Source: a phage
Reading direction: 5' to 3' (one strand)
Length of the DNA: 64,000 nucleotides
Sequence record: PX104380.1
The notes under the pieces are model-generated. The model had not been told where the DNA came from, did no database searches, and was given only the letters and a program-made list of their open reading frames with translations. Each line of letters starts with the position of its first letter. Position 1 is the first letter of the stretch. The position numbers and the translations under genes are program-made. This document shows positions 943-60,290 of this stretch, piece after piece.

Positions 943-1778
943 TAGAATGCTCCTTGGAAAATATTATCACCACTAGTAGGTCTATTATACAAATACTCTA
1001 TGCCACCAGGTTTAATATAGTTCCATGTCTGAAACGGATGTGTCTGATATGGATGATATAGATTATAAGGATTAAATCCAGGAGTTCTCCAGGTAGTGTT
1101 CCAAGGAAAAGAATCGTTTTTAACCATCTTCTCGATTACATCTTTTATAGCTTTTTCACGATCAAAACTTTCTTTATTTTCCTTCGGTGAAAAAAGCTTA
1201 TTCTCTACATCATTCCATGTATAAACTCGCTGTGCAGTTTTTGGAATACTGTCACGCTCCCCTCGAGCCATCCAATAAACAGGAACATTTAATATTTCAC
1301 TCGCGTGATCGCAGTGGTGAGCGAGATCGTCAATATAACAAATTACGTTATATTTCTCTTTTGCTTTTTTGAACAACTCTTCTTTTGAAGAATCATGACC
1401 ACACATCAATACTTCTGAGAAGGCACCAGGAAAAAGAGCATTCAAATTAAATTGACGATTCAGCAGAGCGTCAATAGAATCACCCAGTGCTGTAACAGCT
1501 ACAAAATTATAATCTTCTTTTAATTTGTTAATTACACACAGAGCATCTTTATATGGAGACAAGTAACGAATAAAATCCGAACGATTGTATTTTTCAATTA
1601 ACTTGACGCCAAGTTCTTCGTCGCAATTAAAGAGTTTACCTGGAGAAATAAATTTCTCATCTTGGATCATTTTTAAAATATGTTCTAACGGAAGATTATA
1701 TTTCTGAGCAAAATAAGGAAGGCCTGATTGCCAGCTTAAACATACTCCATCAATATCAGTTAAAATAGTAGGCTTCAT
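942..1778 (-). CDS. HAD-superfamily-like hydrolase-fold protein, 278 aa (position of T4 30.2)
   Basis: N-terminal DIDGV (DxDG[TV]) motif and later IDD acidic motif; function unassigned. Confidence 0.55.
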   Translation of the reverse strand: MKPTILTDIDGVCLSWQSGLPYFAQKYNLPLEHILKMIQDEKFISPGKLFNCDEELGVKLIEKYNRSDFIRYLSPYKDALCVINKLKEDYNFVAVTALGDSIDALLNRQFNLNALFPGAFSEVLMCGHDSSKEELFKKAKEKYNVICYIDDLAHHCDHASEILNVPVYWMARGERDSIPKTAQRVYTWNDVENKLFSPKENKESFDREKAIKDVIEKMVKNDSFPWNTTWRTPGFNPYNLYHPYQTHPFQTWNYIKPGGIEYLYNRPTSGDNIFQGAF

Positions 1779-2233
1779 AGAGAGTCTCTTAATAGGTTTA
1801 ACACATCAATAAATTCAGCTTCGGTTAGTATTGTATCATCTTTTGTTAGACCACTAGCCATGCTATGCTTCAAAATTTTTCCTTTAGAGGCTTGTAAGGC
1901 ATCACGAAACCCCTTGTTTTGAATCGCTGCTTCAAAATATGCATTTGTATACAACTCTTTCCATGCTGCAGAGTATCTTGAAAAGGGAATTCCAAGCCAG
2001 AAAAGCGTCCCACGGTCCGCAGCTCTTGCATAAGCTCTTCCACTTTGCTGGGCGGCCAATCCGGAGAGCCTAAATATACGACGTTGTTGTTCAACATTTT
2101 TCACCTTGCATCCTTGGAGGAATCCTTCAAGACCTCCGAATTGAATACCATCCATGACGAAAGGCCATTGGGCGAAATTACTTAATGCGCATGATGGCCA
2201 TCTAAAATTGCTTCTAATCTCTAACTCAGACAT
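1775..2233 (-). CDS. NADAR / YbiA-like (DUF1768) domain protein, ~152 aa (position of T4 30.3)
   Basis: LSNFAQWPFVMDG...EGFLQGCK resembles recalled E. coli YbiA core FSNFAAWP..DG..E.YFQAQK; track start at 2239 is TTG, first ATG at 2233. Confidence 0.6.
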   Translation of the reverse strand: MSELEIRSNFRWPSCALSNFAQWPFVMDGIQFGGLEGFLQGCKVKNVEQQRRIFRLSGLAAQQSGRAYARAADRGTLFWLGIPFSRYSAAWKELYTNAYFEAAIQNKGFRDALQASKGKILKHSMASGLTKDDTILTEAEFIDVLNLLRDSL

Positions 2234-3387: not shown

Positions 3388-3720
3388 TTATTTTACTACT
3401 TTCCAGTGCTGCATGTCAAGTTTACCGACTTTTTTCATCTTCTCAATTAAGCGTTCGGCACGTTGGCGAGCTGTAACATAATACCATTCACCTAATTCAT
3501 TTTGTTCAATTTTTCCAACGATTACTGTATTCAATTCATAAATCCAACCAGTAAAGAAATTATGAACTTGAATTGTAAAGGTGAAATCTGTTCCCATACC
3601 TTCTGTTGTTTCTACTTCAATAATATCACCTTCAACTGCCATTAAGAACCACATAGTTTCATCATATTTACCATTGAAGCATTTAGTTTTAACTGCAGCG
3701 TTCAGATTAATCGTTTTCAT
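3388..3720 (-). CDS. hypothetical protein, 110 aa
   Basis: ORF track; preceded by terminator plus early-type promoter. Confidence 0.5.
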   Translation of the reverse strand: MKTINLNAAVKTKCFNGKYDETMWFLMAVEGDIIEVETTEGMGTDFTFTIQVHNFFTGWIYELNTVIVGKIEQNELGEWYYVTARQRAERLIEKMKKVGKLDMQHWKVVK

Positions 3721-3796: not shown

Positions 3797-3825
3797 AAAA
3801 TAAAAAAGGACTCCCGAAGGAGTCC
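3797..3825 (-). terminator. rho-independent terminator (UUCG-tetraloop hairpin + U-run)
   Basis: Minus sense GGACUCC-UUCG-GGAGUCC followed by UUUUUUAUUUU. Confidence 0.65.
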
Positions 3826-3830
3826 TTAAC

Positions 3831-53130: not shown

Positions 53131-53733
53131 TTATAGATTAAATCCTTCAAAATCAAGAGTATAGATAGTGTATGTTGAATACTTTTTATACTCATATCTA
53201 TCTGCAATTCTAAATACACTTCCAGCTGGTATCATTACTTCTTGTTCATCTGAAACTAATTCCATATTACGATAACGATGGCTATCCGGAAACTTAAAGT
53301 TTGGATTGTATTCTTTACAGCGTAGAGCTTTTATAGCATACTCCTGGAAATTGAATACCATAGGAGCTTTGAATTCAAAAATAACCTGTGTGCTATACTC
53401 TAAACCAGAAGCAAAATGTAGAGCTATATTTTTATCATATGAAGCTGATACGACTTTATCAAATGTAATAATATCAATTCCTTGATTTAACACCTGCTTA
53501 GTCTCAGCTGGAACACCTCTCCAAAGAGGTTTATCGTTTGGTTCCAAACGAGATTTGATTATTTCATTTAACCAAGTATGGTCATCTGGCTTATTAGTAA
53601 TACAATGAATTAAAAGTTCAATTTCAGATAAATTAAACCCTTCAGAAAGTAATTCTTCACGAATAGAAGCACGCACCGATGCATCCATTGATTTTATTTT
53701 AAAATCTTTTAGTTGCATTACTGAGTATTTCAT
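53131..53733 (-). CDS. modA: ADP-ribosyltransferase ModA, 200 aa
   Basis: 200 aa; tandem with 207-aa paralog; ATG verified. Confidence 0.8.
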   Translation of the reverse strand: MKYSVMQLKDFKIKSMDASVRASIREELLSEGFNLSEIELLIHCITNKPDDHTWLNEIIKSRLEPNDKPLWRGVPAETKQVLNQGIDIITFDKVVSASYDKNIALHFASGLEYSTQVIFEFKAPMVFNFQEYAIKALRCKEYNPNFKFPDSHRYRNMELVSDEQEVMIPAGSVFRIADRYEYKKYSTYTIYTLDFEGFNL

Positions 53734-54353
53734 TCAACTACCTCAATATCATAAACTTTAAATGTTCCAAACGAATCGTGTAATTTTTCTTTTGAAATAG
53801 AAGTTATTTTATACTTTCCAATTGGAATCATCCATTCTTGTTCACGCACGATCATCATTAAGTTATCAGTACGCTCTGAATCTAATCCATCAGTATCTTC
53901 ATATGTATACTTAAACTCAGTATTAGGAGAAGAAAGTATAATATCGCTGATATGGTCAGAGTAATTAAAAGCTTTATCAGTTTTTAAGCGGAATATTATT
54001 TCAGTGAAATATTCAGCATAAGAAAAAGAACACGCTGTGTGTAAACTAGTAGTAAATGAATCTACCCTATTCGTTGAAAACACATCTCCAACCTGTAAAT
54101 TTTCTATTATTTCTTTTGTTGTTTTTGATATACCACGATATAACTGATAAGGCGATTTAGTTAAATGCTTTTTAATGATTTTATTCAACTGTCTGTGAAG
54201 AGCTTCATTCTTTTTGGCTTCCATACATTGCCAAAGAATTGATTGTTCAAAATCAGTAAACTTTTCACAAACCTTTTTATACATATCATATTGAAAATCA
54301 ACGCTTTCAGCTTTTATAGATAACTGTTCAACATCTGCAAGATTAATAATCAT
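53730..54353 (-). CDS. modB: ADP-ribosyltransferase ModB, 207 aa
   Basis: 207 aa, upstream of modA, shared architecture. Confidence 0.8.
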   Translation of the reverse strand: MIINLADVEQLSIKAESVDFQYDMYKKVCEKFTDFEQSILWQCMEAKKNEALHRQLNKIIKKHLTKSPYQLYRGISKTTKEIIENLQVGDVFSTNRVDSFTTSLHTACSFSYAEYFTEIIFRLKTDKAFNYSDHISDIILSSPNTEFKYTYEDTDGLDSERTDNLMMIVREQEWMIPIGKYKITSISKEKLHDSFGTFKVYDIEVVE

Positions 54354-56827: not shown

Positions 56828-56835
56828 TATTTATA
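56828..56835 (-). promoter_or_regulatory. late promoter (TATAAATA) for soc
   Basis: Minus-sense TATAAATA ~30 nt upstream of soc ATG, overlapping the 3' end of the HNH ORF. Confidence 0.65.
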
Positions 56836-57667
56836 ATCCATTTTCAAATCTCTTTATCATGTTTATATAATTTTCGTCAGGATAACCTAGGCTAACTGCT
56901 AGTTTTCTAAAATTGACATATTTAGGTTTGTTGTTATTAATCCATAATTCTCTAAGCTCTTTTTCATAATTCCATTTAAGTTGATTTCTGCGTGCAGTTT
57001 TGCTTAAAGTTTTTCCTTTAGCTTTTAAAGCTTTTTCAGATGACTGTTTTAATTTTTGAATATTTAAAACTTCTTCTATAGATAAATTATTTTCCTTTGA
57101 ATATCTTATGCAAAAATCTTTTACTGCGGCTATTAGGCAATTTTTGTGAGTACCTAAAATTTCTGGGTTATTTTCTTCAACTAAAATTCCCCAATATCTT
57201 CGGTAGCGAGGCATATCTCTTGAAATCCAGTCATTATACCAAAAATCAAAGTTGGAATACATGAAAGATTTTCTTTTACGAAGAGTATCTTGGTTTATCC
57301 ATTGCTCACGTTTATCAGCCCATAACTTAATAGTAAAGTCTTTTTCTGAGTCAGAAAGCTTCTTAAATTGCGAGCTATTTACTGAGGTCATTCTCTGGAA
57401 TGCATTCAGCAATCCAAATCTTCCAGTTGAACATAAGAGATAGTGAACATATATGTGTTGATATATTGGGAGATATACTCTATTCCAAGGATGTATTTTA
57501 AAATCACTATACTCAGGAAATGCGCATTTAGGAAGTATATGATGGGCTTCTGTTTTAGATTTGATGTGAGTGTTTAACTTATATTTATCTATAATTTTTA
57601 AGTACTCATCTAAAAGTTCCCATTGCGGGAACTTTTCTTTAAGAGCAGATTTGAAATTAATATCCAT
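56831..57667 (-). CDS. HNH homing-endonuclease-like protein, ~278 aa, between soc and gene 56
   Basis: HNH motif EAHHILPKCAFPEYSDFKIHPWNRVYLPIYQHIYVHYLL, similar to the mobE ORF; track start 57682 is TTG, ATG at 57667. Confidence 0.6.
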   Translation of the reverse strand: MDINFKSALKEKFPQWELLDEYLKIIDKYKLNTHIKSKTEAHHILPKCAFPEYSDFKIHPWNRVYLPIYQHIYVHYLLCSTGRFGLLNAFQRMTSVNSSQFKKLSDSEKDFTIKLWADKREQWINQDTLRKRKSFMYSNFDFWYNDWISRDMPRYRRYWGILVEENNPEILGTHKNCLIAAVKDFCIRYSKENNLSIEEVLNIQKLKQSSEKALKAKGKTLSKTARRNQLKWNYEKELRELWINNNKPKYVNFRKLAVSLGYPDENYINMIKRFENGL

Positions 57668-58175
57668 TATCTTGACGTTCAAAATTATGCTTGTTCTTCA
57701 GATAATAAAGTTTAAAGATTTCTTCAGCAGTAAGGCCGAGACCTTGGAACATGTTCAGAACGAAATGAAGAATATCAATCATTTCGAATTTAATTTCCAA
57801 CTGGTCTTGTGGAGACAAATCAGTAATCAGAGTTTCACGACGTTCACCATGCTGCGACTTCCAAGGCTTCCATACAGCAGATGCATCTTTTTCACCATTG
57901 CTCATACCACCAAGAGAAGTCAGAAGTTCACGGAATTCATCATCAATGTAATCTTTCTGATTACGCAGCCAATCGACAACTTCACCTGCAGTAGCCAAAT
58001 CATCAGGATGACGGTTATATTCAGGTTTATCTTTAGCTAAACGAACCTGCAGAGATTTCTGCATATCAAGCATAACTTGCAGTGGGTCTTTTTCATCACC
58101 GAGAATATCCCAGTATTCATTTTGAGCTTTATCAGCACCAGCGATCAGATGACTACATTCGTTGAAATGTGGCAT
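57657..58175 (-). CDS. 56: dCTP pyrophosphatase (dCTPase/dUTPase) gp56, 172 aa
   Basis: 172 aa MazG-like; position upstream of soc. Confidence 0.85.
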   Translation of the reverse strand: MPHFNECSHLIAGADKAQNEYWDILGDEKDPLQVMLDMQKSLQVRLAKDKPEYNRHPDDLATAGEVVDWLRNQKDYIDDEFRELLTSLGGMSNGEKDASAVWKPWKSQHGERRETLITDLSPQDQLEIKFEMIDILHFVLNMFQGLGLTAEEIFKLYYLKNKHNFERQDNGY

Positions 58176-58248
58176 GTTATTTTTCCTTTCAATTCATGGG
58201 TTAGTAGATTAATTATACAATAAATATATAAAGCAATAAGGAGGACAT

Positions 58249-58449
58249 ATGGTACAAAAATTAATGGCACTTGTTAATGCCATAAAAGGTAATAAAAAAC
58301 GTATAGCTTTTACTATTTCTGCTATGGTAGGAATTTTACTCTGGAACTTTATTTTATCACCTGTTGCAATTGCACATGGTGTTAATATTCCAGTAGTTAC
58401 TCTTGATACATTTGTAGATTTAGCATTTGCTTTAGTTGGGTTAATTTAA
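58249..58449 (+). CDS. small membrane protein, 66 aa, plus strand
   Basis: ATG at 58249 preceded by AAGGAGG; two predicted TM segments (IAFTISAMVGILLWNFIL, LVGLI). Confidence 0.45.
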   Translation: MVQKLMALVNAIKGNKKRIAFTISAMVGILLWNFILSPVAIAHGVNIPVVTLDTFVDLAFALVGLI

Positions 58450-59474
58450 ATCTTAGCATATTTAGATAACCGCATTTTAGCCATTAACCCCTGGGCAATA
58501 TTATTTTTCATATATTCCATAATTTGTTCAGGGGTTGCACCTTCCTTTCTAATCATATCATTAACATCTTTTGATTTCCAGGGAGATTTATCCCAAAACA
58601 TAACCCTTTCTCCTGCATCAACTAATTTAGTCATTCGCTTGATAGTGTCAGGATGACGAGGTTCATTATCTAAAACCCACACTCGTCTATCTTTAAATGG
58701 AACAACTTCTAGGTCTAATTGACCACCCGTAATAGCTATACCATTTTCAATGAAAAGGGAATCGATAGGTCCTTCTAGAACATATACATCGCCATCTTTA
58801 ACTCGTTCAACTCCATAGATTTTTGTTGCCTCAGGATAAGCTTTAATGGTGATATATTTTTGAGGAGCATCTTTCTTTAATGCGCGTCCTTGAAAAGACT
58901 CAGCCTTTCCGTCAGCATTATAAATTGGAATAACAAGACGAGGCTCAGAAATTTCCTTTTTGTATGTTCCCGGTGCGATGCTATTAACTAATTTAGGCCA
59001 TTCGGTTGTAAACCAAAGATATTTCCATTTATCCTTTGGAATACAACGAGCTTTTACATATTTTATAATTGGATGGTCTTCCGCCAGTTTATCTAATCTA
59101 ACACATGACGGAAGAGATTTAATTATTTTCTTCTCAGGTTGTTTAGGAAGTTCTTTAGGTTTTTCTACTGAACGACTTTTACCTTTTTCTTTTCTTATTT
59201 CAAAGATATACTCACGATATAAATCAGGTTCAAACTCCTTTAAATATATTCCGATTGGTGCATGATAGTTACAGTTATAACAATGAATATTTCCTTCATT
59301 ATTATCACCATAATACCATCCACGGGCTTTATTCTGGTCGGTTTTTGAATCTCCACAAACTGGGCATCTAAACCGTAATTTAAAAGTTGAACTATTATTT
59401 ACTTGTGTGAATTTAGGTAAATGAGCTAATGCACGGTATGCAAACTCATTATCAATCCAAGGTATTGATGACAT
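58446..59474 (-). CDS. 61: DNA primase gp61, 342 aa
   Basis: N-terminal zinc ribbon CPVCGDS...CYNC; TOPRIM region; 342 aa. Confidence 0.9.
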   Translation of the reverse strand: MSSIPWIDNEFAYRALAHLPKFTQVNNSSTFKLRFRCPVCGDSKTDQNKARGWYYGDNNEGNIHCYNCNYHAPIGIYLKEFEPDLYREYIFEIRKEKGKSRSVEKPKELPKQPEKKIIKSLPSCVRLDKLAEDHPIIKYVKARCIPKDKWKYLWFTTEWPKLVNSIAPGTYKKEISEPRLVIPIYNADGKAESFQGRALKKDAPQKYITIKAYPEATKIYGVERVKDGDVYVLEGPIDSLFIENGIAITGGQLDLEVVPFKDRRVWVLDNEPRHPDTIKRMTKLVDAGERVMFWDKSPWKSKDVNDMIRKEGATPEQIMEYMKNNIAQGLMAKMRLSKYAKI

Positions 59475-59642: not shown

Positions 59643-60290
59643 TTAACCTCTATTCATAAAAGCATTAAAAATTTGATCGTCAATAGAAACTTTTACTTTA
59701 GGCTGTTCTTCAAACGGTAATTCATATCCACATATTACAATTTTGTGATCGATACCAAAATACACAGAAGCAATATGATTAATATTATTTTCAGTGAAAT
59801 CTAAATCAACATCAACATCTTTTTGACTAACGCTCAAAGGATAATTAATACGAATAATTCGATTATCTTTAACAAAGATTCCACCGACATACTCTGTGTT
59901 GCGTTTAAAGTTTACACGTTTCCTAAATGAAAAATATTCAGGTTCTTTATGAGCCCGACTCATAGGACACAATGAGTAGCTAGAATAAGAGATGTCAAAT
60001 CCTACACCTTCAATATGAATATGAGCCAACGTGTCATGATTAAACCAATTATAATCATATGCCAAATCCATTATATTGTAATATGTGAAAGGCACCGGAT
60101 TAACATCATGTGTTGTACCTTTAAAATCTGCCCAGGCAACGATTTCGTTATCTTTAACAATTACAAAAATTGTGCCAATAAGATATCCACGGTTATTTTC
60201 ATCAGGCGTTATAGTATAACATTGTGCATCAGGAAATTTACCGTATTTAAACGGTGGATTTTTGTGCATATAATAAATCATATTATTCAC
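59643..60290 (-). CDS. hypothetical protein, 215 aa
   Basis: ORF track. Confidence 0.5.
   Translation of the reverse strand: MNNMIYYMHKNPPFKYGKFPDAQCYTITPDENNRGYLIGTIFVIVKDNEIVAWADFKGTTHDVNPVPFTYYNIMDLAYDYNWFNHDTLAHIHIEGVGFDISYSSYSLCPMSRAHKEPEYFSFRKRVNFKRNTEYVGGIFVKDNRIIRINYPLSVSQKDVDVDLDFTENNINHIASVYFGIDHKIVICGYELPFEEQPKVKVSIDDQIFNAFMNRG

Follow-up and report, generated by a model that had tools for sequence, protein, structure and literature searches.

What does the small open reading frame between genes 30.2 and 30.4 of this phage encode, and is the copy carried here a complete one? We addressed both questions in a window of 64,000 nucleotides, the whole stretch of DNA analysed, from phage sequence record PX104380.1. 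The initial annotation had placed a NADAR (YbiA-like) protein at this locus and had proposed two roles for it, counter-defence against systems that ADP-ribosylate DNA or salvage of nucleotides. The role of gene 30.3 is already known from T4, where it specifies an experimentally characterized anti-DarTG1 enzyme, AdfN. We conclude that the reading frame is an intact ortholog (allele) of T4 adfN that encodes a core-only NADAR-fold enzyme reversing guanine ADP-ribosylation of DNA, and we assign this reading a probability of roughly 0.93.

Identity and integrity of gene 30.3

The window is T4-like phage (Tequatrovirus) DNA. Bases 1500-2500 have matches in 711 phage records, with a best identity of 98.5%, and the minus-strand genes follow the T4 order (30.2, 30.3, 30.4 ... 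30.9, rIII, 31, cd). The coordinates in the initial annotation are exact for the minus-strand reading frame, which starts with ATG at 2233-2231 and ends with TGA at 1777-1775 (Table 1). An in-frame TTG (2239) lies two codons 5' of this ATG, and the T4 annotation does not start there. The predicted protein of 152 aa is 100% identical to its counterparts in phages ECP52 and 121/2022-2B. It shares 144 of 152 residues (95% identity) with T4 gp30.3 (NP_049816), which has the same length and aligns without gaps. The eight substitutions relative to T4 (G55R, A64S, S67A, Q72A, V82I, P89A, V120I, and I125M) are conservative, cluster within residues 55-125, and in no case fall on an invariant column of the family.

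Table 1. Coordinates of adfN, its landmarks, and other features of the window
Feature	Position	Strand	Basis or remark
adfN (gene 30.3) CDS	1775..2233	minus	152 codons plus TGA stop; predicted phage-type NADAR ADP-ribosylglycohydrolase
Overlap of 8 bases, ATGTCTGA, 30.3 start and 30.4 stop	2226..2233	minus	ORF coordinates and sequence
Conserved NADAR active-site motif SNFAQWPFVMDGIQFGGLEGFLQGCK, residues 18-43	2105..2182	minus	Regex match; aligns with YbiA 29-55
Glu36 codon GAA, catalytic residue	2126..2128	minus	Invariant in family; equals PnNADAR E43 and E. coli C7 NADAR E88
Lys43 codon AAG, catalytic/ADP-ribose-contacting residue	2105..2107	minus	At least 90% conserved; equals PnNADAR K50 and C7 NADAR K95
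His123 codon CAT, residue defining phage (gp30.3-type) NADARs	1865..1867	minus	Invariant in 53 sequences
Codons of C-terminal helix, last 15 residues (138-152)	1778..1822	minus	Helix 138-151 in model; intact here
ATGA overlap, 30.3 stop and 30.2 start	1775..1778	minus	ORF coordinates; same sequence in T4 and phage 121/2022-2B
Gene 30.2	942-1778	minus	278 aa
Gene 30.4	2226-2432	minus	68 aa
Overlapping ORF 30.3'	1870-2097	minus	Annotated in T4; rejected here as a gene
Near-consensus sigma-70 promoter match	3390-3419	minus	TTGACA, 18 nt spacer, TAAAAT
Terminator-like hairpin	3806-3827	minus	9 bp stem, then T-run
modA	53134-53733		
modB	53733-54353		
ORF with HNH-like motif	56831-57682		283 aa
adfA (gene 61.2) homolog	59646-60281	minus	73% identity to T4

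The T4 annotation also lists 30.3', a 75-aa reading frame set within 30.3 in the +1 frame. It is open both here and in phage MN01. Relative to T4, 20 of its 76 residues are changed, versus 7 of 77 for the 30.3 protein over the same DNA. The stretch contains 30 nucleotide differences, 19 of them at third positions of 30.3 codons, and most changes leave the 30.3 product unaltered. Because of these two patterns we see no sign of selection on the 30.3' frame, and we rejected it as a real gene.

Public records hold further versions of the gene. Escherichia phage MN01 (MT129652) has an intact adfN reading frame of 152 aa at 1501-1959; it is 86% identical, and the GenBank record gives no CDS for it. 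Truncated gp30.3 variants also occur, as do fusions to gp30.7-, gp30.8-, and PF11097-type sequences (P0004-P0017, P0045, and P0100 of our homolog set). Their sequences suggest that deletions in a plastic region may have destroyed adfN in some T4-like phages.

We also looked for signals that could govern transcription of the cluster. The promoter scan gave 17 matches where 14.6 +/- 3.7 were expected, which is not above chance. One near-consensus sigma-70 match is located where 30.8 ends, upstream of genes 30.7-30.2, and a strong terminator-like hairpin lies between 30.9 and 30.8.

NADAR fold and active site

The 30.3 protein matches the Pfam family PF08010 (Phage_30_3) over the entire profile (positions 1-138 of 138; E 2.7e-67; 225 bits versus a cut-off of 36). 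Searched as a single sequence, it gave no match to the Pfam NADAR profile PF08719 even at E<=10, and nothing in NCBIfam. The sole PHROGs match was a family of unknown function, and the PDB search returned E. coli YbiA alone, at a non-significant E of 0.48. A search with the NADAR profile, suggested in the initial annotation as a check, thus misses this sequence itself, but evidence from the family, from profiles, and from structure bears the assignment out.

We collected 105 homologs and aligned a diverse full-length set of 52-53. Among 52 family members, 21 match PF08719 themselves, the best at E 1.5e-7. Searching the PDB with the family profile brings up YbiA (E 0.0026), and hhalign pairs the family with YbiA over residues 17-123 (94.3% probability; E 1.1e-7). 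The AlphaFold2 model built from the family alignment is confident (pLDDT 92.8; pTM 0.88) and has a YbiA-like alpha+beta fold. Fold searches with this model recovered only NADAR structures; the top three Foldseek probabilities were 0.99-1.00 and all others were 0.04 or lower. Because the family-level, profile-level, and structural evidence supports NADAR, it overrides the PF08719 miss on the single sequence. The 30.3 protein belongs to the NADAR superfamily despite the absent direct Pfam match.

The active-site motif had been written down as SNFA.WP...DG...E...Q..K. All of the residues named there are present and in that order, but the literal pattern fails because six residues, not three, separate DG and E. 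The pattern SNFA.WP...DG......E...Q..K matches residues 18-43, and E. coli YbiA is spaced identically. Across 53 family members S18, N19, F20, E36, G37, F38, and Q40 are invariant, and D28, G29, and K43 are at least 90% conserved. Both the sequence search and hhalign align E36 and K43 to E48 and K55 of YbiA, and the comparison with characterized enzymes pairs them with the catalytic residues of PnNADAR and C7 NADAR (Table 1). Published mutations in C7 NADAR, as in T4 AdfN, support their catalytic role.

A third catalytic position splits the superfamily according to the literature, including Schuller et al. (2023): Glu marks the YbiA type, Asp the DarT-associated type (DarG1), and His the phage gp30.3 type. 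In our model His123 stands directly after the last beta-strand (residues 120-122). The hhalign alignment stops at ILK122, opposite KLV124 of YbiA, and H123 is therefore placed opposite YbiA E125 by extension. The allele retains all 21 invariant residues of the family, including E36 and H123, as well as the near-invariant K43. Loss of the conserved catalytic residues, named at the outset as evidence that would speak against the assignment, is therefore not what we see.

Function and alternative readings

Counter-defence against DNA ADP-ribosylation, one of the two roles first proposed, is the published and experimentally shown function of T4 30.3. The accompanying remark that its function in T-even phages was not established has been overtaken by in vitro work (2024), by in vivo genetics (2024-2025), and by a transposon screen (2025). 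With T2/T4 x RB69 chimeras, Johannesman et al. (Nat Commun 2025, PMC11825919) traced DarTG1 resistance to 30.3, which they renamed adfN. Without it T4 and T2 fail to plaque on DarTG1 hosts, and adfN supplied in trans rescues RB69 on DarTG1, so that the gene is both necessary and sufficient (PMC11825919). Purified T4 AdfN strips DarT1-modified DNA of its ADP-ribose, an activity that E36A abolishes in vitro; rescue of RB69 is weakened by each of E36A, K43A, and an RB69-like truncation (PMC11825919). The same study found that T4 AdfN neither binds DarT1 nor counters DarTG2.

Other studies define the specificity of the enzyme. The NADAR mechanism and structures were described by Schuller et al. 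(2023), who pointed out the His of phage NADARs. In vitro, T4 gp30.3 hydrolyses guanosine-ADPr and not thymidine-ADPr (2024 paper, PMC11125620), and it does not remove cytidine-ADPr (2026 paper). The methods of PMC11125620 give the T4 NADAR construct as 'gp30.3; residues 1-208', versus the 152 aa of T4 gp30.3. In the HIDEN-SEQ transposon screen (2025 preprint) 30.3 is non-essential on plain E. coli K-12, where 27 of 28 insertion sites are tolerated. Insertions in T4 30.3 are strongly depleted when the host carries DarTG1 (log2FC -7.25; adj p 0), but not when it carries DarTG2 (log2FC 0.03).

From the literature on the ortholog, the pathway in this phage would run as follows. The DarT1 toxin of a host DarTG1 system would ADP-ribosylate guanine in phage DNA and block replication. 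AdfN would cleave the N-glycosidic bond between ADP-ribose and guanine by means of Glu36, Lys43, and the phage-specific His123, which would restore normal DNA and allow the phage to replicate. As an orphan (type-IV-like) antitoxin, AdfN would undo the modification enzymatically instead of binding the toxin, and neither thymidine-linked (DarT2) nor cytidine-linked ADP-ribose would be its substrate. All features known to be required for AdfN function are present in the 30.3 allele. Its orthology, fold, catalytic residues, and full length are established in the present analysis; activity and phenotype come from work on the 95%-identical T4 protein, and we infer that this allele is equally active.

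The first alternative concerns the substrate. The enzyme might act mainly or additionally on targets other than phage DNA, such as ADP-ribosylated guanine in RNA, free nucleotides, or soluble immune signals derived from ADP-ribose. NADARs of all families remove guanosine-linked ADP-ribose from RNA in vitro as they do from DNA (2026 paper), and according to a comparative-genomics survey the main targets of phage NADARs would be low-molecular-weight ADP-ribose derivatives. The weak action of T4 AdfN outside T-even infection also fits. However, loss of adfN has a strong and specific effect on DarTG1 hosts, the protein has been shown to take ADP-ribose off DNA in vitro, and the other substrates have no reported phenotype. 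We consider this reading unlikely; such activities could supplement the repair of DNA and would hardly replace it.

A related question is whether AdfN needs a partner. In uninfected cells T4 AdfN does not detoxify DarT1, and phages T5 and Bas25 are barely helped by it (literature on T4 AdfN); full function of the T4-type protein is seen only during T-even infection. On the DarTG1 host of the HIDEN-SEQ screen, 30.4 is the only significantly depleted gene besides 30.3 (log2FC -1.79; adj p 0.014), a result on which the text of the preprint is silent. The gene 30.4 protein gave no family match, and among the loci examined it is limited to Tevenvirinae. It is quite unlikely, in our estimate, that gp30.4 or another T-even protein, for example one of the replisome, acts as a genuine cofactor and recruits the bare NADAR core to modified phage DNA. 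If it were, the screen signal of 30.4 would be more than a polar effect. Because the 30.4 stop and the 30.3 start share 8 bases, the 30.4 depletion is most simply, and probably correctly, explained by polarity on 30.3. Judging from the arrangement of the two reading frames, the overlap is likely to couple their translation.

The gene on the other side, 30.2, was also considered as the required T-even partner. It gave no match in Pfam. All four catalytic HAD motifs of its product are invariant (D8xD10(G), T96, K132, and D150-D151), and the predicted fold most resembles that of cytosolic/mitochondrial 5'(3')-deoxyribonucleotidases, so gp30.2 is a predicted HAD-superfamily phosphatase. Disorder is predicted for its last ~55 residues (pLDDT mostly <60, and <50 at 242-260 and 269-278). 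Our literature search on gp30.2 found no papers, and its function appears to be undescribed. The adjacency of the NADAR and HAD genes recurs in Morganella, Acinetobacter, and Gaprivervirus phages and across several Straboviridae genera; in Vibrio schizoT4 phages, despite different flanks, the gene after the NADAR gene is a HAD gene of the NT5C family. It is absent in Rhizobium, Ralstonia, and Aeromonas phages. Insertions in T4 30.2 are not depleted on the DarTG1 host (log2FC -0.12; p 0.61), and gp30.2 is therefore not required for resistance. This rules it out as a required partner, and the adjacency is also not universal.

The phage's own transferases offer a further possible target, as the 30.3 protein could reverse or tune ADP-ribosylation by Alt, ModA, and ModB. 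Both modA and modB are in the window, as the initial annotation had supposed, and alt adjoins the 30.x region in T4. T4-like NADAR genes are also reported to be expressed early together with ADP-ribosyltransferases (ARTs) (comparative-genomics survey). Against this, the targets of Alt, ModA, and ModB in the T4 annotation are proteins, whereas characterized NADARs act on base-linked ADP-ribose (guanine in all, cytosine in some), and the literature examined reports no NADAR activity on protein-linked ADP-ribose. Loss of adfN causes no defect when DarTG1 is absent. We regard this role as very unlikely.

Equally, the copy in this phage might be an inactive allele. The precedent is RB69, a DarTG1-sensitive phage whose 30.3 carries a frameshift that deletes 15 C-terminal residues and reduces activity (Johannesman et al., PMC11825919), and truncated and fused variants also occur in databases, as described above. 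The reading frame here, however, is of full length with no gap or frameshift relative to T4, and the C-terminal helix is retained together with the invariant residues and K43. In its variable middle part the nucleotide differences from T4 fall mostly at third codon positions (19 of 30), as expected under purifying selection. An inactive allele is highly improbable on these grounds.

We give next to no credence to a YbiA-like N-glycosidase for salvage and damage control of nucleotides or riboflavin intermediates, the second role first proposed: the fold and the Glu/Lys motif are common to the 30.3 protein and E. coli YbiA, an annotated N-glycosidase, and nucleotide-metabolism genes (cd and 30.2) surround 30.3, but the Glu that defines the YbiA branch is His in the 30.3 family, and the gene is dispensable on K-12 and essential only with DarTG1, with no salvage phenotype known.

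Overall, the anti-DarTG1 reading of 30.3 brings no new biology, as the role of the gene is settled. By analogy with T4, resistance to DarTG1-type defence is to be expected of this phage, and this expectation can help to predict host range, as in phage therapy.

We also surveyed other parts of the window. The adfA (gene 61.2) homolog has far lower identity to T4 than its flanking genes 61 and 41 (99%), and from this divergence it may be a locally fast-diverging counter-defence allele. Since it is present in addition to adfN, the phage appears to have layered anti-DarT defences. No dam methyltransferase gene was found between gene 56 (57657-58175) and gene 61 (58446-59474), its site in T4 (56831-58449 examined). 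The reading frame with an HNH-like motif adjoins gene 56, where T4 carries segF.

Comparison with known systems

The closest relative is T4 AdfN. The gene occupies the same locus between 30.2 and 30.4, and the two proteins share E36, K43, H123, and the C-terminal helix; the present allele differs by the eight conservative substitutions listed above. E. coli YbiA (PDB 2b3w) is a more distant relative (~20% identity), a housekeeping enzyme with Glu125 in the place of the phage His123.

DarG1, the antitoxin of DarTG1 (for example the Geobacter lovleyi NADAR, PDB 8bat, and the E. coli C7 NADAR), carries at its N terminus an extension forming a positively charged putative groove for ssDNA, whereas the phage protein is a bare core. 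It has Asp rather than His at the third catalytic position, and its gene lies beside that of its toxin, whereas AdfN is an orphan. In uninfected cells T4 AdfN cannot replace DarG1, according to the literature.

The AdfN proteins of Bas32 and Bas60 are likewise NADARs that remove guanine-linked ADP-ribose and act against DarTG1 (literature). They belong to other branches of the superfamily and were acquired independently. Unlike T4 AdfN, they act without T-even infection, detoxifying DarT1 and helping T5 and Bas25.

Two other anti-DarT factors are known from the same group of phages. AdfM (Tk.4) of T4, a macrodomain protein, counters DarTG2. AdfA (gp61.2) of T4 is small and appears to bind and thereby block DarT, without enzymatic action (PMC11825919).
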